Shown here: one piece after another, positions 15,112-27,870 of the stretch
Position numbering within the stretch: the stretch's first letter is position 1
Layout: every line of letters begins with the position of its first letter
IMG/VR virus record: IMGVR_UViG_3300046374_000030
Coordinates: 1-50,593 of that record
DNA from: a virus
Taxonomy: Duplodnaviria > Caudoviricetes
Length of the DNA stretch: 50,593 bases
Direction: 5' to 3' (one strand)
Notes under the pieces: model-generated
Database searches by the model: none
Seen by the model: only the letters and a program-made list of their open reading frames with translations
What the model was told of the DNA's origin: nothing
Made by a program: the position numbers and the translations under genes

Positions 15112-15328
15112 ACGTCACGATCACGCTGCCCGGTGAGGCCAAGGTCAGCGTCGAGTGCACGCTGGAGGAACTGCCGCAGGTTGTGCACGCCGTCAAGTTG
15201 GGCACCCGCGCCTACTATCGGCCACCCAAACCTCCGCCGACCGGCGCGGATGTCGGTGGCGAGTTTTTCGGCATGACGGTCAGCGATTGGCTGAGGCTGC
15301 TGCACAGTCTGGCGAAGCAGTCCGACGC

Positions 15329-15577: not shown

Positions 15578-16248
15578 CCATCGCGGTCGGGATCGTCGCG
15601 CATGACTCCCGCGCCGCGACGGCCCGGGCGCTGCGCCGCGACGTCGGGGCGGTGGCGGTCAACGTCGATGACGGCACGCTGGGGTGTGAAGGCAACCACG
15701 TCGCGGTGCTGCGGGCGTTGGCGTACCGGCACGTCGACTGGTGCGTGGTCCTCGAGGACGACGCACAGCCGGTCCACGACTTCCGGTTCCACGTCAAAGC
15801 GGCGCTGGGATGCGCGCCCGCCCCGATCGTCGGGCTGTACCTGGGCTACAGCGAGAACCCCGGGACGGAGCAGCGCACCGGGCAGGCGGTGCACATGGCG
15901 ATGGAGAACAACTGGGCGTGGATCATCGGGGACTGCCTGGTCGGCAGCGTGGGATACGCGGTGCGTATCCGCCTGGTTAAACCGATGCTGGACGCGGTCG
16001 TGCAGGTCGGCTACGAGTTGCCGCTGCGGATCACCAGGTGGGCGCAGGAGGCCGGGGTCGACATCTGCTATACGGTGCCGTCGCTGGTCGATCACGCCGA
16101 CCTGCCGTCCACGGACTGCACGCTGGACGCCCAGGACATGCCGGCCGTCGAGCGTAAGGCCTGGCAGTTCGGCAAGCGAGACAATTGGGACACTCCGGCG
16201 GTGCCGCTGGGCTACTGCCCCGGCTGGAGCAAACCGCGGGGAGGATGA
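15574..16248 (+). CDS. Glycosyltransferase (mycobacteriophage type)
   Basis: IAVGIVAH..R, LGCEGNH, WCVVLEDDA, VGLYLG, YTVPSLVDHAD motifs. Confidence 0.8.
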   Translation: MTIAVGIVAHDSRAATARALRRDVGAVAVNVDDGTLGCEGNHVAVLRALAYRHVDWCVVLEDDAQPVHDFRFHVKAALGCAPAPIVGLYLGYSENPGTEQRTGQAVHMAMENNWAWIIGDCLVGSVGYAVRIRLVKPMLDAVVQVGYELPLRITRWAQEAGVDICYTVPSLVDHADLPSTDCTLDAQDMPAVERKAWQFGKRDNWDTPAVPLGYCPGWSKPRGG

Positions 16249-16251
16249 GAC

Positions 16252-17139
16252 ATGGGAAAGATCCTGCTGCTGATCATCCTGATCCTGGTGATCGTCGCGA
16301 TGATCTACGCCAGACGCATCAAGAAACGCGCTGCGCGCAAGGCGCGGGTCGCGGCGATCAGCGCCCGCGCCGACGCGGAGAACGAGTTGGTTTTGGCCGG
16401 CGACCCGCGCGGCTTCTTCGGCGACTACCCGATACCTGACCTGGGAAAAGAGCCGGGCCACATGAGCGTGGCCGAAGCCGAGCACCTGCTCCATCCCGAT
16501 AGCAGCCCTGACCCGGCCACTTCGCCGCAGGAATGGGAGGACTGGTCGCAGGCCAAGCTCGACCAGCTGCGCCGCCACGAAGCCGCGACGGCGATGGCGG
16601 CCAAAATCAAAGAGTCGGGCGTCCTGGCTGGCCTCACCACCCACGCGTTCACCGTCCCGGTCACGCCCGGCGAATACGACGCGGTGAAGTTCGACAACGG
16701 GCAGATCGTCGAGTTCCCGTCTGTGAGGATGGGCGCCCCCGGCGACATCGTGGTGAACATGAGCGGCAACGTCAACGAGGTCGCGCACCTGAAAAACCCG
16801 GTGCTGCGTCGCCGTGGCGGTGACTTCGTCGAACCGGGCGCCACCGTCGTCACCAACTGGGGCGGAGAGGTGGTGCGCGTCATGCAGGACAAATACAGCG
16901 GAACCCTGACGGTGGCCGAAGCCCAGATGATGATGGAGAAGGCGAAGCAGCAATTCAATTGGGACCAGGCAGCTTCCGTCGCCGCGAGGTACCGGGCGGC
17001 GTCTGCCCGCAAGGTGGACCTGGAACCGCCGCGGCCCCGCAAACCGACCCCGTCCCGTAAGGCGACCCCGTCCCGCAAGCCAGCCAAGCGTGCCGCGGCC
17101 GCCAAGAAACCACCGATCGGAGAAGCCGAAAGTGCATGA
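16252..17139 (+). CDS. Membrane-anchored protein with basic low-complexity C-terminus
   Basis: N-terminal TM helix; ARADAEN..VLAGDPRG.FG.Y motif; tail RKPTPSRKATPSRKPAKRAAAAKK. Confidence 0.7.
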   Translation: MGKILLLIILILVIVAMIYARRIKKRAARKARVAAISARADAENELVLAGDPRGFFGDYPIPDLGKEPGHMSVAEAEHLLHPDSSPDPATSPQEWEDWSQAKLDQLRRHEAATAMAAKIKESGVLAGLTTHAFTVPVTPGEYDAVKFDNGQIVEFPSVRMGAPGDIVVNMSGNVNEVAHLKNPVLRRRGGDFVEPGATVVTNWGGEVVRVMQDKYSGTLTVAEAQMMMEKAKQQFNWDQAASVAARYRAASARKVDLEPPRPRKPTPSRKATPSRKPAKRAAAAKKPPIGEAESA

Positions 17140-17773
17140 GGGAGCATACAAATTCGTCGAACGCATCGCGGGCCAGTTGGAACCGCGGCGAATGGCCGCG
17201 CGGCACGTGATCGAGTTGGGGTCGCGCACCGTCGCCGGGGACTGGCCCTACTCAGGTCCGGTGCGGCCGCTGTTCGAGGGCGCCGCCTACCTGGGTATCG
17301 ACATGCTGCCCGGCCCGAACGTCGACGTGGTCGCCGACGCCGCGACCTGGCCCGACGTCGGCGGCGGCCCGACTGTCGGCACCGTCGACGGGCTGACCGC
17401 TGCGCGCTGGGCCGACGTCGGCGTCGATATCAGCGCCCAACCCGTATCCGTTTCGCAGCGCACCAACGCTGACACCGTGGTGTGCTGCGAAACCCTGGAA
17501 CACGCCCCGGAGGCGGGGGCGATATGCCACAACGCGCACCGGCTGCTGCGAGCTGGCGGGGTGTTCATCTGCACCGCCGCTGGCGAAGGCCGCGCTCCGC
17601 ATTCGGGCATCGACGGCGGCCCGATCCGCGCGGTCGACACCGACGGCAGCCTGGAGTTTTACCGCAACGTGAGCCGTGACGAGCTGCGGGATTGGTTGCT
17701 GCCGTTCGGGTTTGCGCTGATCGACACTTCCAACCCGGGCGACATCTACGCGATCGCGGTCAAACTCAAATGA
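17132..17773 (+). CDS. Class I SAM-dependent methyltransferase
   Basis: VIELGSR, YLGIDMLPGPNVDVVADA, DTVVCCETLEH, LLRAGGVF. Confidence 0.8.
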   Translation: MHEGAYKFVERIAGQLEPRRMAARHVIELGSRTVAGDWPYSGPVRPLFEGAAYLGIDMLPGPNVDVVADAATWPDVGGGPTVGTVDGLTAARWADVGVDISAQPVSVSQRTNADTVVCCETLEHAPEAGAICHNAHRLLRAGGVFICTAAGEGRAPHSGIDGGPIRAVDTDGSLEFYRNVSRDELRDWLLPFGFALIDTSNPGDIYAIAVKLK

Positions 17774-17980
17774 GGATCGCGTGAACCCGCACACCGACAA
17801 CCCGTCCCAATGGGCAGCGGCCGACGACATCGTGGGAGGCTTCGTCAAAGCGTTGCAGCAGCAGCCGATGCCGACGTCGCAGATCGCGATGCAGCTGCTT
17901 GCTCTCGAGCATCCGCAGCGGCTGATGCTGATGGCGATGATCGCCGCCACCGCGCTGCAGCGGCTCGCCGCGGGCGGATC

Positions 17981-18631
17981 ATGATCCCGGTCACCGCGAT
18001 CATGATCGCCTACAACAACGAGGACAAAGCCCTGGTCCGGCTGCAGCGTGATCTGTTGCCCGCGCTGGACGGTCTGGACGCCGAGCTGATCGTCATCGAC
18101 AACAGCGAAACCACGTCGGTCGAGCTCGCCGACGCGCTGATCACCGCGGAAGTTGAGGGCATCCATACCCGGTATCAGTGGCAGCTGGGCAACAACCTGC
18201 TCTACGGGCCCGCGATCAACGCCGCGGTCAAACTCGCCACCCGGCCGTATCTGCTGTACGTGTGCACCAACCACGGATACAGCCGCGACCCCAGCTGGGC
18301 GACCGACCTGCTGACGCCGCTGGTCGACGACGACACCCGCACCGTCGCGATGACCGGCTGCCTGCAGGCCGCCGGGCCGCCGGAAAACCACGGCTTCCCG
18401 GCCAGCCTGCCGCAGATTCATGTGCAGGGCGGGGTGTTCGCGGCGCGCCGCGACGTGCTGCGCGCCTTCCCCTACCCGGACGGCGAGTACGCGCACTGGG
18501 GTGCGGACATCCACGAATGCTTCGCGCTGATGCACGCCGGGTTCCATCTGGTGAACGTGCCGACCATCACATCGGTGTGGCGCCAGGCCGCCGGCAACGG
18601 GCACTGGAAGTACATCCACGATGAGCCATGA
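17981..18631 (+). CDS. GT-A fold glycosyltransferase-like protein
   Basis: VTAIMIAYN, LIVIDNS, NLLYGPAINAA, HVQGGVFAARR, WGAD. Confidence 0.7.
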   Translation: MIPVTAIMIAYNNEDKALVRLQRDLLPALDGLDAELIVIDNSETTSVELADALITAEVEGIHTRYQWQLGNNLLYGPAINAAVKLATRPYLLYVCTNHGYSRDPSWATDLLTPLVDDDTRTVAMTGCLQAAGPPENHGFPASLPQIHVQGGVFAARRDVLRAFPYPDGEYAHWGADIHECFALMHAGFHLVNVPTITSVWRQAAGNGHWKYIHDEP

Positions 18632-18965
18632 CCTGACCGGGGAGGAGTTCGTCGGCTACATCTTCCAAGGCTCACCGGAGCGCAGGCCGAGGCTGTGGTT
18701 CCTCGAGCGCCAGATCAACACGCTGTTCCTCTACGGCCCGCTGAACACCGCGCGCAAACCGGGACAGAACTCGCTCGACCTGGACGTGGGTCTGTGGACA
18801 CTGGAACCCGTCGAACCGCTGGTCTACATGCGGGGACTGATGCGTTACCAGCACCGCGGTCACGAGCGGTGGTCCGCGGTGTGGCGGCTCACCGACACCG
18901 TCATCCCCCACGTCCACACGTTCGGCTACGACGACGTGTGGCGCCTCGGTGTATGGCCCGATTAG
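18621..18965 (+). CDS. Hypothetical protein ending in WPD
   Basis: Overlaps the upstream stop; ends VWRLGVWPD*. Confidence 0.6.
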   Translation: MSHDLTGEEFVGYIFQGSPERRPRLWFLERQINTLFLYGPLNTARKPGQNSLDLDVGLWTLEPVEPLVYMRGLMRYQHRGHERWSAVWRLTDTVIPHVHTFGYDDVWRLGVWPD

Positions 18966-19100
18966 CTTGCCGTAACACGCAATTCAAACTGGTGTGCTAC
19001 AGATAGACACTCGTGACGTTCGCGATGTTCCTCGGCCTTTCGATGCTGGCGGTGCTCAGCACGGTGCTCCTGTTTGTGCTGACGCGGACCGACGGCAACG

Positions 19101-19379
19101 GTGGCGTGGCGTCGGAAGAAAACGACGACGAGCGACCACAATGAAGCCGTGAACAGCCCGAAATGCCCGGAGTGCCCACACCTGGCGCACCAGCACAACC
19201 TCGACGGCGACGGCAAATGCCGCGTCCGTATCCTCACCGGCTGGGACCACCAAACTAACACCTACACGTCGTGGCGGCCCTGCCCGTGCCCGGGCTTTCA
19301 CGGCGAAGCCACCTGCTGCGCCTGCGAATACGTGCCGACCTCACCGAACTGTGTGCACTGCGGCAAGGTGAAAGTGTGA
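19101..19379 (+). CDS. Cys-rich hypothetical protein
   Basis: Several CxxC/CxC motifs. Confidence 0.55.
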   Translation: MAWRRKKTTTSDHNEAVNSPKCPECPHLAHQHNLDGDGKCRVRILTGWDHQTNTYTSWRPCPCPGFHGEATCCACEYVPTSPNCVHCGKVKV

Positions 19380-20149
19380 CCCGCCGCAAACCGCCGGCCA
19401 CGGTGTGCATCCCGTGGCGGCCCAGCCCCTCACGGATGGACGCCTACCACCGGGTGCTGGAGTTCTGGTGGAAAACCGGGTGGCCGGTGATCCCCGCCGA
19501 CTCGGACACCGAAATCTTCTCCCTGTCGCAGGCCCGCAATAACGCTGTCGCGCAAGCGAAAACAGATGTGGTGGTGATCTGTGACGCCGACACCATCCCC
19601 GACATGACCAACATCCGTGCCGCGGTCGCCGACCCGGTCGGGGTGTGCTGGCCGTTCACGAAATACCGGGTTCTGGCGCCGGAATACCTCGACGTGCCGT
19701 TCAAAAAGTTGGCTGACGTGCCCTACCTCTACGAGTGGGGCGGTGACGGCGCGAACGGGGTGGGCGGCTGCCTGGTCGCCACCACCAGGGAATACTGGCG
19801 CCTCGGCGGGCAGGACCCGGCGTTCATCGGCTGGGGGCACGAAGACACCGCGTTCACCTTCGTCGTGGAAACCCTGTCCACGCTGCGCCGCAGCCCCGGC
19901 AACATCTACGCCTTCGAACACAACACGTCGGCGGTCGGTTACACCGGCGCCAAAGCCGACAGCCCCGGCTGGGACCGCGACTACGGCCGCAACGAGGCGC
20001 TGATGGTGCCCTACCGCACCGCGCGGCACCGGGCGTGGCTGATGCGGGAAGTCATCAAAAACCGCACCGGGCAGGACCCGCTGGGCGACGCGCCGAACCG
20101 CGGTGATCCCGAACTGAACAAGGCTCTGCTGGGAAGATACAAACCATGA
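19376..20149 (+). CDS. Glycosyltransferase (GT2/galactosyltransferase-like)
   Basis: VCIPWR, FSLSQARNNAV, VVICDADT (DxD), GGQDPAFIGWGHED. Confidence 0.85.
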   Translation: MTRRKPPATVCIPWRPSPSRMDAYHRVLEFWWKTGWPVIPADSDTEIFSLSQARNNAVAQAKTDVVVICDADTIPDMTNIRAAVADPVGVCWPFTKYRVLAPEYLDVPFKKLADVPYLYEWGGDGANGVGGCLVATTREYWRLGGQDPAFIGWGHEDTAFTFVVETLSTLRRSPGNIYAFEHNTSAVGYTGAKADSPGWDRDYGRNEALMVPYRTARHRAWLMREVIKNRTGQDPLGDAPNRGDPELNKALLGRYKP

Positions 20150-20604
20150 GCACCAGACGGCGGCTCAGCCCGAAAGAGCGGGCCAAACGGGACGCGTTCA
20201 TCCTGGACCTGTTCGTGGCTGGCAACACCCAGGCGGTGATCGGCGCGCATCCGCAGGTGCAGCTGACCGAAGCCAGGGTGAACCAGATCGTCAAAGCCGA
20301 GCTGGAACGCTGCGCCCAAGACCACATCCTGCGCAACACCAACGCGATGACGATCTACCTGTCGCGGATGGAATACCTGGTCCGCAAGGCGATGGGCCAC
20401 GTCGACGACGGCGACCTGAAAGCGATCGAAGTCACCCGCCGGCTGATGGCCGACCAAGCCAAGATCAACGACCTGGCCGAAGGCCGGGTCAGCGCGGGCC
20501 CGATCCCGCCGATGGGCGACACCGAGCTGGACGACGGGGAGCCGCTCGACGAGCTGGCCGCCTACCGGGCGCAGCGCCGCGAAGTCAAAGCGGAGGGTTC
20601 ATGA
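20146..20604 (+). CDS. Probable terminase small subunit
   Basis: N-terminal HTH-like segment, GDLKAIE helix and C-terminal LDELAAYRAQR, typical of actinophage TerS. Confidence 0.6.
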   Translation: MSTRRRLSPKERAKRDAFILDLFVAGNTQAVIGAHPQVQLTEARVNQIVKAELERCAQDHILRNTNAMTIYLSRMEYLVRKAMGHVDDGDLKAIEVTRRLMADQAKINDLAEGRVSAGPIPPMGDTELDDGEPLDELAAYRAQRREVKAEGS

Positions 20605-20819
20605 AAGCGTTGTTGCGGGGCGGTCCGTGCGAGGGGCGGATCATCGCCGATGTCACCGAGTCGACTCAGAACATCGCGATTCCGGCCGCCAGCATGACCA
20701 ACCCGCGGTCGGCTATCTACACCCGCGTCGGTGAAAACGCCGACGCCCGCGGCGAAAAGACGTTGCTATTCAACTTCGTGAAGGTGCAGCAGCAGAAGTT
20801 GGTCGAGGGGCTGAATTGA
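20601..20819 (+). CDS. Hypothetical protein
   Basis: GGAGG RBS, ATGA overlap, LRGGPCEG motif. Confidence 0.6.
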   Translation: MKALLRGGPCEGRIIADVTESTQNIAIPAASMTNPRSAIYTRVGENADARGEKTLLFNFVKVQQQKLVEGLN

Positions 20820-21071
20820 GCGCGATGGTCGGGGTGATCGCCGGCCTGGTGATCCTGTACTTCCTGGTGGCCGCGCTGCAGAAAAGCGGGCGGCTGCGAT
20901 GACCGAACCCTGTGCTGGCTCGATGACGTTCCCCACCAACTACGACGGCGAAACCACCGTCTGCCCGCGGTGCGGGCGAAGGCTGCGGCTGCACGTCAAC
21001 GGCAAACTTCCCAAGCACAACCGCGAACCGCGCCGCCCCGTCCACCTCGAGCGCGGCACCAGGATCATCGC

Positions 21072-21251
21072 GTGAACGAGGCGCAGCACCGCGCTTCGAT
21101 CAAGGTGGCCGAGGCGCGAAACTGTGTGCACCGCCTCGCATCTGATCTCAGCGAGGCCGAACGCAGGCTCAAACGCGCCGAAGCCAGATTGCGGCGAGAG
21201 ATCCGACTGGACCCCGACGCCTACGCGCAGATTACGGCGGTGAGCGGATGA
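21072..21251 (+). CDS. Small coiled-coil hypothetical protein
   Basis: GTG start after AGGA, heptad-like sequence. Confidence 0.5.
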   Translation: MNEAQHRASIKVAEARNCVHRLASDLSEAERRLKRAEARLRREIRLDPDAYAQITAVSG

Positions 21252-21252
21252 G

Positions 21253-21283
21253 GGTGTCCACCAACGGACACCGCCGCTACACT
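21253..21283 (+). promoter_or_regulatory. Promoter of tRNA block 1 with overlapping GGTGTCC-N6-GGACACC operator
   Basis: Palindrome 21253-21272; -10 TACACT 21278-21283, followed 7 nt later by GTG at 21291 (leaderless geometry). Confidence 0.6.
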
Positions 21284-21290
21284 GTGTGAC

Positions 21291-21344
21291 GTGCACGCCC
21301 GCCGATTACTGCGATCACGTTCCTCCTTGCGACTTAGTCGCTAA
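21291..21344 (+). CDS. Leader peptide 1 (MHARRLLRSRSSLRLSR) for the Ser/Leu tRNA block
   Basis: Leu codons TTA, CTG, TTG, CTT and Ser codons TCA, TCC, TCC, AGT; stops 3 nt before tRNA-Ser. Confidence 0.7.
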   Translation: MHARRLLRSRSSLRLSR

Positions 21345-21347
21345 CCA

Positions 21348-21430
21348 GGAGGGTGATCCCGGCCGGGCTGGGGCTTCTCTGCTAAGGAATGCGCGGCATT
21401 GTCCGTGGTGTCCGACTCACCCGCCCTCCG
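21348..21430 (+). tRNA. tRNA-Ser(GCT)
   Basis: Acceptor GGAGGGT/GCCCTCC, loop CT-GCT-AA, long variable arm, atypical T loop. Confidence 0.75.
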
Positions 21431-21434
21431 CTGA

Positions 21435-21521
21435 GGAAGATGAAGCAGTGGCGAGTGCCGCGACCGGCGTCGAATACCGGGTCCGCTTAACCGCGGTGGG
21501 GATCAAGACCTCCGTCTTCCA
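21435..21521 (+). tRNA. tRNA-Ser(CGA), atypical
   Basis: Acceptor GGAAGAT/GTCTTCC, loop GT-CGA-AT, long variable arm, T loop ATCAAGA. Confidence 0.65.
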
Positions 21522-21525
21522 CGAA

Positions 21526-21599
21526 GCCGTCGTAGCCCAACCGGCAGAGGCACTGGTCCCAGAAGCCAGACAGTGCGGGTTCGAATCCCGCGGGCGGCA
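21526..21599 (+). tRNA. tRNA-Leu(CAG)
   Basis: CTGGT-CC-CAG-AA-GCCAG, GGTTCGAATCC, short variable loop. Confidence 0.85.
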
Positions 21600-21600
21600 C

Positions 21601-21674
21601 GCTCCCGTAGTCCAACCGGCAGAGGCAGCGGCATGAGGTGCCGTCCAGTGTGCGTTCGAATCGCACCGGGAGTA
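21601..21674 (+). tRNA. tRNA-Leu(GAG)
   Basis: GCGGC-AT-GAG-GT-GCCGT, TTCGAAT T loop. Confidence 0.85.
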
Positions 21675-21675
21675 C

Positions 21676-21749
21676 GCACCCTTAGCCCAAACGGGAGAGG
21701 CATCCGGCTCAAACCCGGTCCAGTCTCGGTTCGAATCCGAGAGGGTGTA
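21676..21749 (+). tRNA. tRNA-Leu(CAA)
   Basis: CCGG-CT-CAA-AC-CCGG, GGTTCGAATCC. Confidence 0.85.
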
Positions 21750-21750
21750 C

Positions 21751-21823
21751 GCGCTCCTAGCCCAACGGGAGAGGCAGCCGGTTTAAGCCCGGTCCAGTCT
21801 CGGTTCAAATCCGAGGGGGCGCA
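21751..21823 (+). tRNA. tRNA-Leu(TAA)
   Basis: GCCGG-TT-TAA-GC-CCGGT, GGTTCAAATCC. Confidence 0.85.
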
Positions 21824-22218
21824 CCCACCGTCATCTTGTAGGTGCGGATCGCGTCGCTGGAGGCGCGCATCATCAGCACCGCCTCATCGCGGCTGACCGC
21901 CGACCGGTTGCCGCCGACCTGCAACCAGAACTTGTCGGGGATCTGCGGGTGAATCCACACCCGCCAGCGCAGCTCCGGATGGTCAATCGAATGCATCGCG
22001 GCCAGCCAGCGTAACCGCTCCAACGGCGACGCACCCTCGGGGCAGGGCGGCTGGACGGTCGGCCCGTACGCCGGGTCGTCGGGATGAACCCACCGCAGCT
22101 GCGGCGGCTCATACTCGGCCAGCGCCGCGAAGAACGCCTGGTCGTCGCGCCGCGACTGACCCCACCGCTCGTCATCCGGCGCAACGGTCTCCCACTTCAG
22201 GCCCTGCGGTTGTGTCAT
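21805..22218 (-). CDS. Hypothetical protein inserted antisense within the tRNA array
   Basis: ATG at 22218 (MTQPQGLKWE...), 137 aa; stop lies antisense to the T arm of tRNA-Leu(TAA). Confidence 0.6.
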   Translation of the reverse strand: MTQPQGLKWETVAPDDERWGQSRRDDQAFFAALAEYEPPQLRWVHPDDPAYGPTVQPPCPEGASPLERLRWLAAMHSIDHPELRWRVWIHPQIPDKFWLQVGGNRSAVSRDEAVLMMRASSDAIRTYKMTVGAPPRI

Positions 22219-22222
22219 GCGT

Positions 22223-22423
22223 TTAGGCGACGCTGATGGAGCTGGCGGTGGTGGTGACGTTGCTTTCCCAGTGGTCTCCGCTGGTGACGCCTGAGACGCT
22301 TTTGAGCCAGTTGTGCAGTTGCAGCACGGTGCAGGGTGTGGTGAGTGCGGGGTGAGTGACGGGCCGGTGGGCCAGTTGTTCGGCGCTGGCTTTTTCTTCG
22401 GGCATGGGGTCATCATCGCCCAC
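22223..22423 (-). CDS. Small hypothetical protein in the same insert
   Basis: 66-aa ORF ending 4 nt before the next ATG. Confidence 0.5.
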   Translation of the reverse strand: MGDDDPMPEEKASAEQLAHRPVTHPALTTPCTVLQLHNWLKSVSGVTSGDHWESNVTTTASSISVA

Positions 22424-22498
22424 GGTGGATGTTGTGGGGTTGCGGCGCGCCGTGTCCTAGACGATGCAGCGTTCCACCCGGCGGCTCAGCAAACCCGA

Positions 22499-22527
22499 CA
22501 GTCTCGGTTCAAATCCGAGGGGCGCAC
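22499..22527 (+). repeat. Copy of the tRNA-Leu(TAA) 3' half (att-like direct repeat or tRNA remnant)
   Basis: CAGTCTCGGTTCAAATCCGAGGGGCGCAC matches 21795-21824 except for one missing G. Confidence 0.8.
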
Positions 22528-22542
22528 GCTACAATGACCACC

Positions 22543-22578
22543 ATGTTCTTCGCCCCACGACCGTATCCCTGGCGCTAG
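22543..22578 (+). CDS. Leader peptide 2 (MFFAPRPYPWR) for the Pro/Trp/Tyr tRNA block
   Basis: -10 TACAAT at 22530-22535, ATG 7 nt later; codons CCA, CCG, CCC, TAT, TGG. Confidence 0.7.
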   Translation: MFFAPRPYPWR

Positions 22579-22611
22579 CCGCCCGGTCGTGACAACACGC
22601 CCGGGATCAAA

Positions 22612-22685
22612 CCGGGTGTAGGCCAACTTGGTAGGCCACCTGCTTTGGGAGCAGGAGACTGGGCGTTCGAATCGCTCCTCCCGGA
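22612..22685 (+). tRNA. tRNA-Pro(TGG)
   Basis: CCTGC-TT-TGG-GA-GCAGG, GTTCGAATC. Confidence 0.85.
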
Positions 22686-22689
22686 CGAA

Positions 22690-22761
22690 GGGGACTTCGC
22701 CAAGTGGGAAGGCAGCGGCTTCCAAACCCGCCACGACTGGGTTCGATTCCTAGAGTCCTCG
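22690..22761 (+). tRNA. tRNA-Trp(CCA)
   Basis: GCGGC-TT-CCA-AA-CCCGC, GGTTCGATTCC, G73. Confidence 0.8.
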
Positions 22762-22762
22762 C

Positions 22763-22843
22763 GCCGGCACATCCCATGTGGTGAGGGAAGCAGACTGTAA
22801 ATCTGTGGCTTCGGCTGTGTAGGTTCGACCCCTGCTGCCGGTA
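22763..22843 (+). tRNA. tRNA-Tyr(GTA)
   Basis: GCAGA-CT-GTA-AA-TCTGT, variable arm GGCTTCGGCT. Confidence 0.85.
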
Positions 22844-23032
22844 CGATCAGCGCAGCAGAGATGGGCGCCTGCCACGCGGCCCGGCTACGATTCCTGGGCT
22901 TCACCGTGATCCCTCGTCGGGGAGATGCCCACCCGGTACGATCAACGAGCAGAGATGGGCGCCTGCCATTGAAAGCCAGCCGGGTAACCGTGACGTGGTC
23001 GTAGGTGATCCCCCAGCGGGGAGACGCCCGCC
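22838..23032 (+). repeat. Tandem duplicated promoter/leader unit, each copy starting ATG-GGC-GCC-TGC-CAY
   Basis: Two units of about 95 bp: CCGGTACGATCA..AGCAGAGATGGGCGCCTGCCA...GTGATCCC..GGGGAGA(T/C)GCCC. Confidence 0.8.
22955..22972 (+). CDS. Leader peptide 3 (MGACH) for the Cys/His/Gly/Ala tRNAs
   Basis: ATG GGC GCC TGC CAT TGA downstream of TACGAT (22937-22942). Confidence 0.6.
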   Translation: MGACH

Positions 23033-23085
23033 TACGAAAAATGGGTGGACCGAACGCGGGCCAACCGTTTACCGTGGTACACAGT

Positions 23086-23156
23086 GCGCTGGTGACCGAG
23101 TGGTCAGGTGGCAGGCTGCAAACCTGTTCAGGCTGGTTCGATTCCAGTCCGGCGCT
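23086..23156 (+). tRNA. tRNA-Cys(GCA)
   Basis: GCAGG-CT-GCA-AA-CCTGT, U73. Confidence 0.9.
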
Positions 23157-23157
23157 C

Positions 23158-23235
23158 GGTAGTCGTAGCTCAATGCGGCAGAGCGCCGGGATGTGGCCCC
23201 GGAGGTTGAGGGTTCGGACCCCTTCGATTACCCCA
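23158..23235 (+). tRNA. tRNA-His(GTG)
   Basis: CCGGG-AT-GTG-GC-CCCGG, G-1/C73, encoded CCA. Confidence 0.9.
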
Positions 23236-23306
23236 GCGGGTGTGGCGTAGTGGCCGCGCACCAGACTTCCAATCTGGCAACGCAGGTTCGATTCCTGTCA
23301 TCCGCT
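23236..23306 (+). tRNA. tRNA-Gly(TCC)
   Basis: CCAGA-CT-TCC-AA-TCTGG, U73. Confidence 0.9.
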
Positions 23307-23385
23307 CGACATCGCCCTCGTGGTCGCCAGAGGAGTAAGGCTGGTCAATCCGCGTAAAGCCGAGGCGAAGCTAATATCGGCACCT

Positions 23386-23458
23386 GGGGTTGTAGCTCAG
23401 CTGGTAGAGCGCCTGCCTTGCAAGCAGGAGGCCCGGGGTTCGATTCCCCGCTGCTCCA
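23386..23458 (+). tRNA. tRNA-Ala(TGC)
   Basis: CCTGC-CT-TGC-AA-GCAGG, G3:U70. Confidence 0.92.
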
Positions 23459-23459
23459 C

Positions 23460-23532
23460 GCCTTGATAGCTCAGTTGGTAGAGCGCCCGCCTGAAGAGTG
23501 GGAGGCCCGAGGTTCGATCCCTCGTCCTGGCA
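23460..23532 (+). tRNA. tRNA-Phe(GAA)
   Basis: CCCGC-CT-GAA-GA-GTGGG. Confidence 0.9.
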
Positions 23533-23536
23533 CTTG

Positions 23537-23608
23537 GCCCTGCTAGCTCAATGGGAGAGCGTCCGTTTCACACGCGGAAGGCACGAGGATCGTAACCTCG
23601 GTGGGGCA
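23537..23608 (+). tRNA. tRNA-Val(CAC)
   Basis: TCCGT-TT-CAC-AC-GCGGA, T loop ATCGTAA. Confidence 0.85.
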
Positions 23609-23609
23609 C

Positions 23610-23681
23610 GTCCTGTTAGCTCAGCGGCAGAGCGCCGGCACGACACGCCGGAGGCCCGAAGTTCGATCCTTCGACGGGACA
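23610..23681 (+). tRNA. tRNA-Val(GAC)
   Basis: CCGGC-AC-GAC-AC-GCCGG (C33). Confidence 0.85.
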
Positions 23682-23682
23682 C

Positions 23683-23751
23683 ATGATGCGAACGCGAACC
23701 GATCAGGGGCGGCGAAAGCCGACACGTCGCCCTGATTCCGCGCGTCCGTAG
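23683..23751 (+). CDS. Leader peptide 4 (MMRTRTDQGRRKPTRRPDSARP) for the Lys/Thr/Gly/Asp tRNAs
   Basis: ATG 1 nt after tRNA-Val; codons ACG, ACC, ACA, AAG, GAT x2, GGG; stop inside tRNA-Lys (nt 8-10). Confidence 0.6.
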   Translation: MMRTRTDQGRRKPTRRPDSARP

Positions 23752-23817
23752 CTCAGTCGGTAGAGCTGTTGCCTCTTAAGCATCAGGTCGAAGGTTCGAT
23801 CCCTTCCGGGCGCACCA
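23742..23817 (+). tRNA. tRNA-Lys(CTT)
   Basis: Loop CT-CTT-AA, encoded CCA. Confidence 0.9.
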
Positions 23818-23818
23818 G

Positions 23819-23893
23819 GCCGTTGTCGCACACGTTGGCTTGTGCACCTGCCTTGTAAGCAGACTTACGCGGGTTCGATTCCTGTCAGCGGCT
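23819..23893 (+). tRNA. tRNA-Thr(TGT)
   Basis: CTGC-CT-TGT-AA-GCAG, GGTTCGATTCC. Confidence 0.85.
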
Positions 23894-23941
23894 CGTTATG
23901 ATAAGCGCATCAGCGAAGCGCACCACGAAGGAAAGGCGATC

Positions 23942-24163
23942 ATGTCGCAGGAACAAGAGCAGGAAACGGCCAGCGCCGAGCAGCGACTGGAAGCCGACCC
24001 GGCGCTGGAGCCCGAGCTGGCGCACGAGCGCGACGAAGGTGCGGCCGAAGCAGCCGAAACCGCAGCCGAGGACGCGGCGTACTCCGGTTCCGGTGCGCTG
24101 TCGGCGTCCGCGGTCGCGGGCGCGGACGACGAAGCCGCGGACGAGGCCGCTGAGGACGCGTAG
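23942..24163 (+). CDS. Small highly acidic, Ala/Glu-rich protein
   Basis: GAAGGAAAGG RBS; MSQEQEQETA...DEAADEAAEDA, 73 aa. Confidence 0.7.
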   Translation: MSQEQEQETASAEQRLEADPALEPELAHERDEGAAEAAETAAEDAAYSGSGALSASAVAGADDEAADEAAEDA

Positions 24164-24193
24164 CTTGTCAGACCGTCGCCTTAAAGTTCGGGT

Positions 24194-24553
24194 GTGGCAA
24201 TCAGCCAAGCCAAAAAGACGCAGCAAGCCCGCTGGAGAAATGAGAACCGCACGTTCCTACGTCAGATCAATCGCAAACGACGCCTAGCGATCAAAGGTGA
24301 AGCTCTCGATCACTATGGATGGGAATGTGCGGAGTGCGGATTCGACAACCCAATGGCTCTCGTCATAGATCACGTCGATGACAACGGTGCGGATGAGCGG
24401 AGGGATTTAGGCGGGCGGCATTATGCGGGCTGGAACTTCTACAGCTACCTGAAGCGCCTCGGCTGGCCGGAGGGATATCAGACGCTTTGCGCGAACTGTA
24501 ACATGATCAAACAGCAGCTCAGGCTGCAAGGCACCTGTGGTCTAGCGGTATGA
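24194..24553 (+). CDS. HNH endonuclease
   Basis: CAECG...LVIDHVDDNG...YQTLCANCN; stop overlaps tRNA-Gly(GCC). Confidence 0.85.
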   Translation: MAISQAKKTQQARWRNENRTFLRQINRKRRLAIKGEALDHYGWECAECGFDNPMALVIDHVDDNGADERRDLGGRHYAGWNFYSYLKRLGWPEGYQTLCANCNMIKQQLRLQGTCGLAV

Positions 24554-24602
24554 CACCTGCTTGCCATGCAGGAGATCGCGGGTTCGATTCCCGTCGGGTG
24601 CT
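24531..24602 (+). tRNA. tRNA-Gly(GCC)
   Basis: CCTGC-TT-GCC-AT-GCAGG, U73. Confidence 0.9.
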
Positions 24603-24603
24603 C

Positions 24604-24616
24604 GTTGTTTGATAAC
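24604..24616 (+). promoter_or_regulatory. BoxA-like antitermination element
   Basis: GTTGTTTGATAAC resembles the mycobacterial rrn BoxA (GTTGTTTGAGAAC) and sits in an AT-rich tRNA spacer. Confidence 0.5.
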
Positions 24617-24629
24617 AACTAAACATCAT

Positions 24630-24701
24630 GGCTCTGTAGCTCAGTGGTAGAGCGCCGGCCCGTCAAGCCGGAGGTCGAGGGATCGTTCCCCTTCAGGGTC
24701 G
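24630..24701 (+). tRNA. tRNA-Asp(GTC)
   Basis: CCGGC-CC-GTC-AA-GCCGG (C33), G73, T loop ATCGTTC. Confidence 0.85.
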
Positions 24702-24702
24702 C

Positions 24703-24750
24703 ATGTTGATACGGGCGCGACGAATTAGGCAGCGGCGACAAAGCCGCTGA
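24703..24750 (+). CDS. Leader peptide 5 (MLIRARRIRQRRQSR) for the Ile/Arg/Arg/Arg/Gln tRNAs
   Basis: ATG 1 nt after tRNA-Asp; 11 of 14 codons after the start are Ile, Arg or Gln. Confidence 0.7.
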   Translation: MLIRARRIRQRRQSR

Positions 24751-24759
24751 TTTCGTCAT

Positions 24760-24831
24760 GCCCGTCTAGCTCACCGGTAGAGCACCGATCTGATAAGTCG
24801 TAGGCACCAGGTTCAATTCCTGGGTCGGGCA
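24760..24831 (+). tRNA. tRNA-Ile(GAT)
   Basis: CGAT-CT-GAT-AA-GTCG, GGTTCAATTCC. Confidence 0.85.
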
Positions 24832-24832
24832 C

Positions 24833-24907
24833 GCCTTCATAGCTCAGTCTGGACAGAGCACCGGTCTACGGAGCCGGGTGTCGCAGGTTCGAATCCTGCT
24901 GGGGGCA
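24833..24907 (+). tRNA. tRNA-Arg(ACG)
   Basis: CCGGT-CT-ACG-GA-GCCGG. Confidence 0.9.
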
Positions 24908-24908
24908 C

Positions 24909-25005
24909 GCCGCTGTGGCTGAACGGATAAGCGCCCGCCTCCTAAGCGGGTTAGGCAACCGGCTTCTACCCGGTGAATATGCAGGTTCGAATCCTGTCAG
25001 CGGCA
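24909..25005 (+). tRNA. tRNA-Arg(CCT) with a 30-nt variable region
   Basis: CCCGC-CT-CCT-AA-GCGGG; variable region 24951-24980. Confidence 0.8.
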
Positions 25006-25008
25006 CAA

Positions 25009-25079
25009 GCCTTCGCCAGCGGATCTGGCCCTGAGTTTCCGAAGCTCGGCGTGCGGTGGTTCGACTCCACTCGGGGGCA
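25009..25079 (+). tRNA. tRNA-Arg(CCG), atypical D arm
   Basis: CTGAGT-TT-CCG-AA-GCTCGG, GGTTCGACTCC; no U8/N9 linker. Confidence 0.7.
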
Positions 25080-25083
25080 CTGG

Positions 25084-25156
25084 TGAGCCGTTGGGTAACT
25101 GGCATCCCGCCGCGCTTTGGTCGCGGATATTGCACGTTCGAATCGTGCCGGCTCAG
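25084..25156 (+). tRNA. tRNA-Gln(TTG)
   Basis: U1:A72, CCGCG-CT-TTG-GT-CGCGG, G73. Confidence 0.85.
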
Positions 25157-25167
25157 CTATGCTGCTT

Positions 25168-25189
25168 GGGTGTCCATTCGCGGACACCC
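25168..25189. promoter_or_regulatory. Palindromic operator-like site GGGTGTCC-N6-GGACACCC
   Basis: Same half-sites and 6-nt spacer as the sites at 11642, 21253 and 37147. Confidence 0.55.
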
Positions 25190-25210
25190 CGAGCACGGAA
25201 GGAGCCTGAG

Positions 25211-25270
25211 ATGCGACAGCACAAACCGGAGCCTGAACGCATGAATCAGGCGTCCGTAGCTCAGCGGTAG
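25211..25270 (+). CDS. Leader peptide 6 (MRQHKPEPERMNQASVAQR) for the Lys/Glu/Glu/Asn/Gln/Met tRNAs
   Basis: RBS GGAAGGAG at 25197-25204; codons AAA, GAG, GAA, ATG, AAT, CAG; runs into tRNA-Lys. Confidence 0.7.
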   Translation: MRQHKPEPERMNQASVAQR

Positions 25271-25321
25271 AGCTGTTGCCTTTTAAGCATCAGGTCGGGG
25301 GTTCGATCCCCTCCGGGCGCA
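25250..25321 (+). tRNA. tRNA-Lys(TTT)
   Basis: Loop CT-TTT-AA; near-identical to tRNA-Lys(CTT). Confidence 0.9.
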
Positions 25322-25325
25322 CGCT

Positions 25326-25397
25326 GGTCCCATGAGGTAGCGGCTAGCCTGCGAGATTTTCACTCTCGTCGTTCGGGTTCGATTCCCGGTGGGACTG
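25326..25397 (+). tRNA. tRNA-Glu(TTC)
   Basis: CGAGA-TT-TTC-AC-TCTCG. Confidence 0.88.
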
Positions 25398-25412
25398 CGG
25401 AGGCGCGTTGTG

Positions 25413-25523
25413 ATGAAACGGCTCAAAGCTTTGCTGCGGCCGCACCTGTATTCGCTTTGGCGATGGACGTGGGCCGAGGACGAAGACGACGACGAAGACG
25501 ACGACGAAGCTGGATTGGTGTAA
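25413..25523 (+). CDS. 36-aa peptide with an acidic run between the two tRNA-Glu genes
   Basis: GGAGG RBS; MKRLKALLRPHLYSLWRWTWAEDEDDDEDDDEAGLV; stop inside tRNA-Glu(CTC). Confidence 0.5.
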   Translation: MKRLKALLRPHLYSLWRWTWAEDEDDDEDDDEAGLV

Positions 25524-25580
25524 CCGGGAGCACAGCGGATTCTCAGTCCGCCAGCGCGGGTTCGAGCCCCGTATCCAGTG
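25509..25580 (+). tRNA. tRNA-Glu(CTC)
   Basis: GCGGA-TT-CTC-AG-TCCGC. Confidence 0.88.
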
Positions 25581-25584
25581 CTGA

Positions 25585-25657
25585 TGGTCTGTAGCACAAC
25601 CGGCAGTGCGCTCGGCTGTTAACCGAGTGGTTGAAGGTTCGAATCCTTCCAGGCCAG
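25585..25657 (+). tRNA. tRNA-Asn(GTT)
   Basis: CTCGG-CT-GTT-AA-CCGAG, G73. Confidence 0.92.
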
Positions 25658-25661
25658 CGAA

Positions 25662-25733
25662 TGAGGTGTGGTCCAACCGGCACGACTCTGGGTTCTGGTC
25701 CCGGCAATCTAGGTTCAAATCCTGGCACCTCAG
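25662..25733 (+). tRNA. tRNA-Gln(CTG)
   Basis: U1:A72, CTGGG-TT-CTG-GT-CCCGG. Confidence 0.88.
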
Positions 25734-25737
25734 CGGA

Positions 25738-25813
25738 TGCAGGGTAGGGAAGTCTGGTCTATCCCTGCGGCCTCATAAGCCGTAAATCGCGGGTTCGAAT
25801 CCCGCCCCTGCAA
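25738..25813 (+). tRNA. tRNA-Met(CAT), initiator versus elongator uncertain
   Basis: GCGGC-CT-CAT-AA-GCCGT; fMet-like T arm, but paired U1:A72 and no full GGG/CCC run. Confidence 0.85.
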
Positions 25814-25817
25814 CGAG

Positions 25818-25973
25818 ATGGCCGGATTGACGGTGCGACTGATCACGCCACAGCCGCTGCCCAAGGCGGATGAATGGTGGGACGAGGTGACGCTGTGCCG
25901 GGTCGAGCGTGTCGACGAGGGCTACAGCTACACCGCCCGGCTGGACGGACGCAGGATTACGCGTAACGCGTAA
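25818..25973 (+). CDS. Small hypothetical protein
   Basis: 51-aa ORF MAGLTVRLITPQ... directly after tRNA-Met. Confidence 0.4.
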   Translation: MAGLTVRLITPQPLPKADEWWDEVTLCRVERVDEGYSYTARLDGRRITRNA

Positions 25974-26020
25974 TGCGACACGCCGCGGAAATGCTTGACA
26001 GCGTCCACGGCAAACTTGCG

Positions 26021-26059
26021 GCGTGTCTGCGCCGGCCACGGTAAACATCGCGTGACCAT
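26021..26059 (+). promoter_or_regulatory. Candidate late promoter upstream of the terminase operon
   Basis: GCGTGTC...CCACGGTAAAC-N7-GACCAT. Confidence 0.55.
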
Positions 26060-26065
26060 GACCTC

Positions 26066-26275
26066 GTGCGCGGGTTGTTGTGCGACGCGCTTGCTGCTGT
26101 CTTGAGGGCGCTGACCGCGCCGCTGAGGAAAGTCATCAGCGACGCGATCGCCGACGCCCGTGACCGCGCCACCCGCGAGGACATCGCCGCCGCGCTGGTG
26201 TCGGCGACGTGGACCGCCAAGGATGACGAGGCGTTCGACCAAGCGTTCGGCGAATATTTGCAGGAGCCGGAGTGA
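26066..26275 (+). CDS. Small hypothetical protein
   Basis: GTGA overlap with the TerL start. Confidence 0.5.
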   Translation: MRGLLCDALAAVLRALTAPLRKVISDAIADARDRATREDIAAALVSATWTAKDDEAFDQAFGEYLQEPE

Positions 26276-27870
26276 GCGCCGTCCTTGAGGCCGATCCCGA
26301 GGTCGGCTCCACGCTGCCACGGCTGTTCACCCCGCCGCTGCCCGAGCACGTCGACCCCGACGCCGAATGGGGCATCAAACCCGAAGCCACCTGGGGTCCG
26401 CTGTGCTGCGACTTTTTGGAACGCATCCTGAAATGGAAGCTGCTGCCCTGGCAGAAGTGGCTGTACTACCGGGCGCTGGAAAAGCGTAGGAACGGAACAG
26501 GTTTCAGGTTCCGCTACCTGATCGTGCTGGTGGCGCGGCAGAACGGGAAGACGAAGTGGGGGATGGGGCTGGGGCTGTGGCGGCTGTTCATGGACAAGCA
26601 CGGCCGCGCCGACCCGGATTGGCCGGCGGCCAAGCTCGCCGTCGTGGCGGCGCAGAACTTGGATTACGCCGAGACCACCCTCAAGGAAGTCGTCGACGAG
26701 ATCCGCGACCAGCCGCTGCTGGCGCCGGAACTGTTGAACCACAAGGTGACCAACGGCAAGCACCGCGCGATCCTGTCGTATCGGCGGCTGTGGCGCGCCG
26801 CGACAGCGAACAAGAAGGGGGCGCGGTCGCTGTCGGTGGATTTCGCGTGGCTCGACGAGCTGCGCACCCACACCACCCCGGACGCCTGGAACGCTGTCAC
26901 CCCGACCACCAACGTCCGCATCTGCGCGCAGGTGCTCGCCACCTCCAACGCCGGGGAAAACACCAGCGTCAAACTCAAGGAGCTGCGCCAGGCCGCGGTC
27001 CGCAAGATCACCGTCGGCGACACCGCCGACACGCAGACCGGGTTCTTCGAATGGAGCGTGCCCGACGAGGTGGACCCGCGCGACGACTCCTACTGGTATC
27101 TGGCGAATCCCGCGCTGGGGCTGCTCAACGAGTTCTGCCTGGACGATCTGCGGGCGCATTTCGAGACGATGGAAGCCGACGATATGCCCGGCTTCCGCAC
27201 CGAGTATCTGTGCCAGTGGGTGGACGCGCTCAAGCCCGGCATCCTGCCCGCGCAGGCGTGGGCCGACACCATCGACAAGGAATCGAAGCGGGCCGAGAAC
27301 TCGCCGGTGTACGCCTGCATCGAGTACAACTACCACCGCACCCGCGCCTACGTCGGGATCGCCGCCCGGCGCGCTGACGGCAAGACCCACATCGAAGTCC
27401 TCAAAACCCCGGCCAAGGGCGTCGACTGGCTCCCCGAATGGCTGCGCCCACGCAAAGAAAAGTTCGCCGGCATCTGCATCCAAAAGACCGGCGCGCCGGC
27501 TTCGGGGCTGGCTGACGATCTGCGGGCCCAGGGCTTCACGATCATCGACTGGGGCTCCCCGGTGGCGCAGCTCGCCGCCGGCGCCGGCGACTTCTACGAC
27601 GGGCTGGTCAACGGCACCATCAAACACCGGCCCGCCTTGGTGCTGGACAAGGCCGCCGCGTCCACCCCGGCCCGCACCATCGGCGACGCCTGGTTTTTCG
27701 ACCGCCGCCACTCCCCGGTGGACGCGTCCCCGGTAATCGCGGTCTGCGGCGCGGCGTGGCTGCTGAACAACCCGCCGCCACCGGTCGGCCCGGCGACGGT
27801 GTGGGAATGGCCCGACGACGACACCCTCGACGAATGGCGGAAGGAAGCCGATGACCGATTCAACGAGTAA
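26272..27870 (+). CDS. terL: Terminase large subunit
   Basis: LLPWQ, Walker A VARQNGKT, Walker B FAWLDELR, TSNAG, FFEWS, ANPALG, C-terminal nuclease (VDA). Confidence 0.95.
   Translation: MSAVLEADPEVGSTLPRLFTPPLPEHVDPDAEWGIKPEATWGPLCCDFLERILKWKLLPWQKWLYYRALEKRRNGTGFRFRYLIVLVARQNGKTKWGMGLGLWRLFMDKHGRADPDWPAAKLAVVAAQNLDYAETTLKEVVDEIRDQPLLAPELLNHKVTNGKHRAILSYRRLWRAATANKKGARSLSVDFAWLDELRTHTTPDAWNAVTPTTNVRICAQVLATSNAGENTSVKLKELRQAAVRKITVGDTADTQTGFFEWSVPDEVDPRDDSYWYLANPALGLLNEFCLDDLRAHFETMEADDMPGFRTEYLCQWVDALKPGILPAQAWADTIDKESKRAENSPVYACIEYNYHRTRAYVGIAARRADGKTHIEVLKTPAKGVDWLPEWLRPRKEKFAGICIQKTGAPASGLADDLRAQGFTIIDWGSPVAQLAAGAGDFYDGLVNGTIKHRPALVLDKAAASTPARTIGDAWFFDRRHSPVDASPVIAVCGAAWLLNNPPPPVGPATVWEWPDDDTLDEWRKEADDRFNE

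Follow-up and report, generated by a model that had tools for sequence, protein, structure and literature searches.

The window analysed here, meaning the whole stretch of DNA, is the entire virus record IMGVR_UViG_3300046374_000030 (50,593 nt), which includes portal, prohead protease and capsid genes as well as a 3,081-aa ORF. Its terminase is about 51% identical to its best matches, those of the Mycobacterium phages Hilltopfarm, Nadezda and Typha, which points to a mycobacterial host; with the best terminase identity at about 51%, no close cultured relative of this soil phage was found, nor was any phage or plasmid record covering its tRNA array. ARAGORN placed 28 tRNA genes at 21526-25814, and four more were recognised by eye (about 32 in all). 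Genes missed or miscalled by ARAGORN were Ser(GCT) at 21348-21431, Ser(CGA) at 21434-21522, Arg(CCT) at 24909-25006, which has a long extra arm, and Arg(CCG) at about 25010-25082, whose odd, GC-rich D arm recurs in the relatives L001, L002, L005 and G001. The tRNAs are arranged in blocks with spacers of 50-100 nt between them. Above threshold, Rfam returned only tRNAs over the array region. Methyltransferase-like and glycosyltransferase-like ORFs (13189-20149) lie directly upstream of the array. Two small acidic ORFs within it, at 25413-25523 (tail DEDDDEDDDE) and 23942-24163 (Glu/Ala-rich, also in L001), had no Pfam match. The sequencing runs consisted of contigs only; in the one RNA run the long pieces that match the window lay at 23305-23491, 21936-22086 and 23987-24691, all outside the leader described next.

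The sixth tRNA block is preceded by a short ORF, here called leader 6. The features of this region are as follows.

25158..25163, + strand: predicted -10 hexamer TATGCT of the block-6 promoter (predicted start site near 25170; TANNNT co-located in relatives)
25168..25189, + strand: 5'-terminal hairpin GGGTGTCC/GGACACCC predicted by folding (same hairpin in L005 from different sequence)
25211..25270, + strand: leader 6 ORF, 19 codons, MRQHKPEPERMNQASVAQR, with control codons CAG3, AAA5, GAG7, GAA9, ATG11, AAT12 and CAG13
25250..25322, + strand: tRNA-Lys(TTT), first tRNA of block 6 (ARAGORN, Rfam)
25326..25398, + strand: tRNA-Glu(TTC)
25413..25523, + strand: 36-codon ORF whose acidic tail overlaps tRNA-Glu(CTC); not present in L001, L002 and L005
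25509..25581, + strand: tRNA-Glu(CTC)
25585..25658, + strand: tRNA-Asn(GTT)
25662..25734, + strand: tRNA-Gln(CTG)
25738..25814, + strand: tRNA-Met(CAT)

The ORF reads ATG CGA CAG CAC AAA CCG GAG CCT GAA CGC ATG AAT CAG GCG TCC GTA GCT CAG CGG TAG, and its ribosome binding site, GGAAGGAG, lies at 25197-25204, 6 nt upstream of the ATG at 25211. The initial annotation had singled it out as holding, within 12 codons, a cognate codon for each of the six downstream tRNAs. This is borne out: all six codon classes occur in codons 3-12 (AAT matching Asn(GTT) by wobble, not by Watson-Crick pairing), and the binding site, the ATG and the tRNAs were confirmed. The ORF also ends inside the tRNA-Lys D arm, as had been said, its TAG at 25268-70 being nt 19-21 of the tRNA (D loop). 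The 36-codon ORF at 25413-25523, which splits block 6 in the window, had gone unmentioned. The tRNA-Met(CAT) of the block is presumably an elongator, its first base being paired and three successive G-C pairs being absent from its anticodon stem. Position 25170 has a GTG that might serve as a leaderless start; it was considered as the start of the leader and rejected, its frame differing in L001 and the codon being absent from L002 and G001.

The chance of finding all six classes in 12 codons, a calculation that the initial annotation had proposed, was estimated at 9.0e-5 from the codon usage of 12 phage ORFs (6,936 codons), at 3.4e-6 from the array base composition, at 2.0e-3 with lenient wobble and at 1.1e-3 with all 18 codons counted. 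The match is therefore far beyond chance, at about 1e-4 under strict and about 2e-3 under lenient counting. All six classes were held by 6 of the 81,292 stop-free 12-codon segments in the six frames, five of them overlapping in leader 6 and one at 46616.

Relatives were sought through the terminase, which yielded 18 loci; five carry block 6 together with the leader, three of the five being one phage. The homologues of leader 6 are MRQHKPEPERMPNQ in L001, MRQRKPEPERMPNQ in L002 and MMRQRKPEPERMPNQ in L005. The leader MRMHRKPEPEQQNQVPVAQEQNS stands before the same Lys-Glu-Glu-Asn-Gln-Met block in G001, a 145-kb phage that is a biased sample, having been retrieved by the leader motif, and whose kinship is not established, since a terminase profile search of it gave no match. 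A further sequence, X3, has an L001-like leader with a CCC insertion and no substitution. The binding site and ATG of leader 6 are conserved in the five sequences, and TANNNT lies about 45-55 nt upstream of the ATG in all five as four different hexamers (TATGCT in L001, TATACT in L002, TACGAT in L005 and TACAGT in G001). Identity between L002 and the window is 0.90 in the leader and 0.60-0.80 in the six tRNAs. Indels within the ORF are of 3 nt only (L001, L002, L005 and G001), and the third positions of AAA CCG GAG CCT GAA are invariant across the leader-6 sequences. This last point would suit untranslated triplets that pair directly with tRNA anticodons in the manner of a T-box specifier, but the matches all lie in one frame from start to stop, the indels keep that frame and a search of 19000-27000 with Rfam gave no T-box match to E 1, so that direct pairing is very improbable.

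In G001 the Met codon has moved from position 11 to position 3 and the Gln codons have shifted the opposite way, both being retained. Its tRNA-Lys has been replaced, and the first 15 nt of the old tRNA persist as a relic in the leader. The G001 ORF ends 26 nt upstream of the tRNA, so overlap between ORF and tRNA is dispensable. A leader-6 pattern search gave no match in genome contigs and two in metagenomes, both from phages already in the comparison; the 28 viral matches to a 16-mer comprised five known contigs, G001 and 22 sequences without a tRNA block at that place. No homologue of leader 6 was found in cultured phages.

Four sister leaders precede other blocks of the array.

21291..21344, + strand: Ser/Leu leader VHARRLLRSRSSLRLSR, predicted leaderless (TACACT, 7 nt, GTG)
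22543..22578, + strand: Pro leader MFFAPRPYPWR, predicted leaderless (TACAAT, 7 nt, ATG), before Pro/Trp/Tyr (22612-22844)
23683..23751, + strand: Lys/Thr leader MMRTRTDQGRRKPTRRPDSARP, directly after tRNA-Val and before Lys(CTT)/Thr(TGT)
24703..24750, + strand: Ile/Arg leader MLIRARRIRQRRQSR, directly after tRNA-Asp

The Ser/Leu leader, which has homologues in ET08, Myrna, G001, L080 and L085, precedes Ser(GCT), Ser(CGA) and the Leu tRNAs CAG, GAG, CAA and TAA (21348-21825) and covers five of these six anticodons. The Ile/Arg leader covers all five anticodons of its block, namely Ile(GAT), Arg(ACG), Arg(CCT), Arg(CCG) and Gln(TTG) (24760-25157), Arg(CCT) and Arg(CCG) having been identified by eye. 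Leaderless starts are predicted for the Ser/Leu and Pro leaders from their -10 spacing, both beginning 6-7 nt downstream of TANNNT; a promoter scan with the sigma-70 consensus recovered only the Pro-leader promoter. Pattern searches returned 22 matches for the Ser/Leu leader, seven with the leader before a Ser/Leu block (two of these identical in sequence), and 10 matches for the Arg leader, the four new ones being without tRNAs. Several leaders (window 23683 and 24703; L001 5398 and 6208; L048 8286) begin 1-2 nt past the 3' end of the preceding tRNA and have no -10 hexamer, so that tRNA 3' processing would yield a nearly leaderless mRNA.

Other elements of the array were also noted. A degraded tRNA-Leu-like copy (22450-22529) adjoins the Pro-leader promoter, and a minus-strand ORF (21805-22416) lies between Leu(TAA) and this copy; as the copy repeats the 3' half of Leu(TAA), an insertion at tRNA-Leu(TAA) is suggested. 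Structured repeats between tRNAs (window 22862-22936 and 22956-23032; L002 6310-6405 and 7408-7481) are closed by a stem, often show a GCTACG loop, carry a T-arm-like hairpin and are without Rfam match. Both window repeats open with ATG GGC GCC TGC CAY (MGACH) and lie immediately upstream of the tRNAs for Cys, His, Gly and Ala. Such repeats may be tRNA-like decoys or inserted leaders. In G001 a hairpin stands in front of every Thr tRNA (L048 5427-5481, 5558-5610 and 5683-5737); its arms are conserved (GACGGC...GCCGTC) and its loop varies. Upstream of the Ser/Leu leader of L002, ARAGORN reported Pyl(CTA) at relaxed score (position 5380), with similar calls in L039 and L054.

The match between leader codons and downstream anticodons was evaluated for all five leaders. 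With leaders and blocks picked by hand, coverage was 21/22 anticodons in the window, 16/19 in L001, 18/19 in L002 and 19/20 in G001, and in each of these four the true leader-block pairing was the best of 120; shifted frames covered only 0-2 anticodons per block. An automated scan was also performed, using ATG/GTG ORFs of 8-30 codons, spacers of at least 40 nt and 5000 shuffles of the anticodon order, with tRNA lists that were without Arg(CCG) in the window and L002. It gave z values of 8.2 for the window, 4.4 for L001, 7.7 for L002, 4.0 for L005 and 5.9 for G001. The p value of the shuffle test was 0.0002, the floor of 5000 shuffles. The main cluster of ET08 reached only z = 1.9, owing to its Pro leader. 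The unrelated arrays of Bongo (z = -1.1), Wildcat (-0.5) and pCBMA213_1 (-1.1) showed no leader signal in the scan, unlike the window family. That a short ORF merely happened to hold these codons is barely credible: one further six-class segment does exist among the 81,292, and the leaders were initially picked by eye, but neither the automated shuffle nor the recurrence in distant phages would be expected by chance.

The codons also follow the tRNA set when it changes. The Arg leaders of L001, L002, L005 and G001, all of which have Arg(TCT), contain AGA, and the window leader has AGG, no AGA, and the tRNA Arg(CCT). The Lys/Thr leader of G001, MKRKQTTRTTAY, holds ACA, ACG, ACT and ACC, and three Thr tRNAs follow it; Ile codons (ATA, ATT) are confined to leaders upstream of tRNA-Ile. 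The tracking has exceptions. TCG is missing from three Ser/Leu leaders, the L001 leaders are without CCA and TTA although the matching tRNAs are kept, and those of G001 are without CCA. Ten window tRNAs have no matched leader codon before their block (Cys, His, Gly, Ala, Phe, Val, Val, Gly and Asp, plus the Ser tRNA for TCG), and no leader clearly belongs to the Cys-His-Gly, Ala-Phe-Val-Val or Gly-Asp group. Read from sequence comparison, the codon match of leader 6, its conservation, its co-variation with the tRNA set of the relatives and the four sister leaders form one consistent pattern.

Two of the sister leaders also occur in cultured phages, among which ET08, Turret, Colt, Bipolarisk, Issimir and Myrna carry one or both; several are recorded on M. 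smegmatis mc2 155. In ET08, TACAGT is followed after 7 nt by MFARLSLSSSLRLS, before Ser(GCT), Ser(CGA), Ser(GGA), Leu(CAG), Leu(GAG) and Leu(CAA); all six have their codon in it, and the Ser codons are predicted to pair with the first 9 nt of tRNA-Ser. Myrna has MFALLSLSSSLRLS at the corresponding place. ET08, Bipolarisk and Issimir carry MFEIRPPEPRWRYQPSLGR before Pro/Trp/Tyr, and Turret and Colt have a Pro leader with a different hexamer and an earlier GTG, the frame being kept; for the Pro-leader region of ET08, five of 203 matching records were examined. The Pro leader was not seen in Myrna or Francesca. A short ORF of ET08 with five Thr codons, VATPLTPAWSTLRTTMLI (L047 9129), precedes tRNA-Thr(GGT) and is possibly another leader.

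For the structural analysis of leader 6, three strands are distinguished.

25191..25210, + strand: strand A, the 5' UTR including the binding site, predicted to pair with 25246-25262, enclosing the start and taking tRNA-Lys nt 1-13
25227..25236, + strand: strand B, codons 6-9, the 5' arm of the hairpin named in the initial annotation; invariant in the five sequences
25246..25262, + strand: strand C, the end of AAT-CAG plus tRNA-Lys nt 1-13, partner common to A, B and the acceptor 3' strand

The hairpin between leader and tRNA that had been proposed exists as named: CGGAGCCTGA at 25227-36 pairs with 25246-56, including tRNA-Lys nt 1-7, at -14.6 kcal/mol (z = -2.7 for a hand-chosen 43-nt piece). 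It shows no covariation, however, and a stronger helix that occludes the binding site competes with it, the duplex energies being -21.6 kcal/mol for A:C, -16.9 kcal/mol for B:C and -12.4 kcal/mol for the acceptor stem. In the alignment register 15, 15, 13, 14 and 11 of 15 A:C pairs are present in the five sequences, the B:C hairpin loses one pair in two of the five, and neither helix has a two-sided pair change. Strand C is kept in the G001 leader as a non-tRNA relic, with which the A helix of G001 pairs in changed sequence and register (-22.3 kcal/mol).

Folding predicts that the leader disrupts the first tRNA. The acceptor stem of tRNA-Lys has a probability of 0.98 by itself but only 0.00-0.04 once the leader is included, in all five sequences. 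On nascent RNA, upstream pairing of tRNA nt 1-7 reaches a probability of at least 0.7 at 22/24 leader junctions versus 22/99 other spacers, the 24 junctions being homologous groups and not independent. Against its own dinucleotide shuffles, the anti-acceptor pairing of leader 6 gave p = 0.28, and p<0.05 was reached at only 5/24 junctions. The Ile/Arg leader has a predicted hairpin that reaches into tRNA-Ile (z = -3.9). The Pro leader has alternative predicted 1:2, 2:3 and 3:4 hairpins, strand 4 being the 5' end of tRNA-Pro.

In modelling ribosome positions, the footprint was assumed to span -15/+11 relative to the A site, and RNA on one side of the ribosome was kept from pairing with RNA on the other. 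Under this model, stalls at GAG, CCT and GAA of leader 6 free tRNA-Lys and a stall at AAA does so partly, and stalls at ATG11, AAT12 and CAG13 cover 3, 6 and 9 nt of it. When the 5' UTR was allowed to pair across the ribosome, no stall position freed tRNA-Lys in the window or L001. The statement that stalling upstream spares the tRNA therefore does not hold as it was made. The Pro leader is predicted to be the cleanest switch and the most attenuator-like: tRNA sequestration is 1.0 when no ribosome is bound or when one has reached the stop, and 0.0-0.5 with one at CCA, CCG, TAT, CCC or TGG. The window shows this switch, and L002 and G001 show it in part; for leader 6 the predicted switching is partial, and folding gave no switch in the Pro leaders of ET08 or Turret, nor in G001 leader 6 at GAG-CAG. 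In the model, the anti-acceptor helix of the Ile and Arg leaders is lost whenever a ribosome is bound, whatever the codon. This would be expected if translation were a constitutive folding aid or brake and the codon match a remnant of no sensory use; such a reading leaves unexplained why codons and anticodons stay matched when they are gained, lost or moved, and we regard it as improbable.

A control acting on folding only, in which a stall would spare the cloverleaf of the first tRNA for RNase P, full translation would unfold it, and transcription would be unaffected while the misfolding spread to the other tRNAs or triggered their decay, is unlikely. The loss of the acceptor stem in 5/5 sequences, the absence of a U-tract terminator and a Pro-leader switch that ends in the tRNA 5' strand agree with it. 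It is at odds with the Met11, Asn12 and Gln13 stalls, which would cover the tRNA, with the G001 ORF, which ends before the tRNA, and with whole-block folds, which were noisy and gave no consistent domino effect on later tRNAs; these folds are uninformative because several tRNAs are unfolded in the model even without the leader. Nor does the unfolding of tRNA-Lys suffice as the output, as had been supposed, for it leaves the codons for five further tRNAs unexplained and the ORF-tRNA overlap can be dispensed with. Codons for all six tRNAs call for a block-wide output, for example termination or decay.

No intrinsic terminator (hairpin plus U tract) was found upstream of the first tRNA for the five leaders, and terminators in the array were not in excess (4 found versus 3.9 in shuffles). 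Counts of C and G were 27/17 in the Pro leader, 21/12 in the Ser/Leu leader, 11/10 in leader 6 and 13/18 in the Ile leader. With no excess of terminators and a leader 6 that is not C-rich, the output step is not seen in the sequence. The leader-tRNA hairpin could itself be a factor-independent terminator or pause, working without a U tract or with CUUUU of the Lys anticodon loop, and a stalled ribosome would keep it from acting. The stable hairpins of some length seen at several leaders and one terminator-like match at 25256-25276 would fit this, but that match consists of the D arm and anticodon loop of tRNA-Lys, a feature of any Lys(TTT) gene, other blocks are without U runs, and the available text of 10.1101/2022.06.01.494293 reports intrinsic terminators to be rare in M. 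tuberculosis; a terminator of this kind is distinctly unlikely.

The observation is real and conserved, and most likely reflects codon-sensing control of phage tRNA blocks. The leaders are very probably translated codon sensors that regulate tRNA yield, the sensing step being well supported by the comparisons above. For the full chain, ribosome-stall attenuation of tRNA blocks through a tRNA-misfolding hairpin, with Rho probably replacing the U-tract terminator, we estimate a probability of roughly 0.6. The initial annotation was right about the sensor, and its translated, codon-matched leader tied to a structure that takes the 5' strand of the first tRNA is supported; it was incomplete on the output step.

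In the proposed chain, with no ribosome present, the acceptor stem would be blocked by strand A, pairing with tRNA-Lys nt 1-13, or by strand B, pairing with nt 1-7; the A pairing would also enclose the leader-6 start. A shortage of charged tRNA for Lys, Glu, Met, Asn or Gln, through starvation or host tRNA cleavage, would make a ribosome stall in the leader; the stalled ribosome would prevent the helices and shield the nascent RNA, and the block would be transcribed through. The likely trigger is host tRNA cleavage in infection, as treated in the main text of PMC10264068. During fast translation the ribosome would end in the D loop and depart, leaving the first tRNA trapped in a misfolded state and the binding site occluded again, and the transcript would be terminated, most likely by Rho, or degraded. 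We infer the termination step from mycobacterial precedent: according to the available text of the respective reports, Rho is the main agent of conditional termination where uORFs are translated in M. tuberculosis (10.1101/2022.06.01.494293), and stalled ribosomes relieve inhibitory helices at leaderless short ORFs in M. smegmatis (10.1101/834739), and the stall/Rho chain was adopted on these grounds. We would give even odds to the broader view that the leaders form a regulon, each tRNA block having its own codon test track, the misfolded first tRNA being the off state and the anti-acceptor helix replacing the terminator, through which the phage would sense destroyed host tRNAs anticodon by anticodon and supply only those.

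The role of phage tRNA arrays has been debated for decades between codon compensation and defence from host tRNA cleavage, and the tRNAs of cluster C1 phages are presented as a defence against anticodon nucleases in the main text of PMC10264068; such a defence would provide a selective reason for tRNAs made on demand. If the reading is correct, a leader turning on just those tRNAs whose codons stall would be direct evidence for supply on demand, the leaders would be a built-in reporter of which tRNAs the host destroys, and attenuation would extend to tRNA genes, with tRNA folding as the output. Two sister leaders (Ser/Leu and Pro/Trp/Tyr) occur in cultured Bxz1-like mycobacteriophages, which makes these predictions testable in the laboratory.

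Multivalent leader-peptide attenuators are known from amino-acid operons (thrL, ilvL, pheL, trpL). The phage leaders resemble them in their short leader ORF, whose control codons correspond to more than one downstream product, and in predicted alternative hairpins, and the Pro leader has their 1:2/2:3/3:4 layout. They differ in that the controlled genes are tRNAs, control is codon-specific, the codons are mostly single and not tandem, strand 4 is the tRNA's own 5' end and no U-tract terminator was found; given this last difference the leaders are not classed as classical attenuators, though they are multivalent-attenuator-like. In T-box riboswitches a tRNA is sensed via a codon in the leader, and here several in-frame codons take the place of the one specifier. 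No published account of leader-peptide control of tRNA genes was found in the literature searched, and subscription journals and supplements could hold a mention. The main texts of PMC5966550, PMC12803027 and PMC10264068 do not contain 'leader', those of PMC5966550 and PMC12803027 do not contain 'attenuat', and the main text of 10.1101/2022.06.01.494293 has zero occurrences of 'tRNA'.

The array itself is like the mycobacterial tRNA array units G1-G5 in the main texts of PMC5966550 and PMC12803027, with about 32 clustered tRNA genes, an HNH-like ORF and an order as in ET08 and Myrna. The Rho-dependent uORF termination of M. tuberculosis, as far as the available text of 10.1101/2022.06.01.494293 describes it, offers a stop without a U tract, and a role of Rho at the phage leaders would follow the same logic. 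With the mycobacterial polycysteine attenuators, leaderless short ORFs as described in the available text of 10.1101/834739, the phage leaders share what is likely the same host group, predicted leaderless starts (in sister leaders) and a stalled ribosome that would block an inhibitory helix. The polycysteine attenuators respond to a single amino acid, and their helix masks the RBS of a downstream gene, whereas in the phage leaders the helix is predicted to mask a tRNA acceptor strand, up to six anticodons would be sampled, and leader 6 is led by an RBS.
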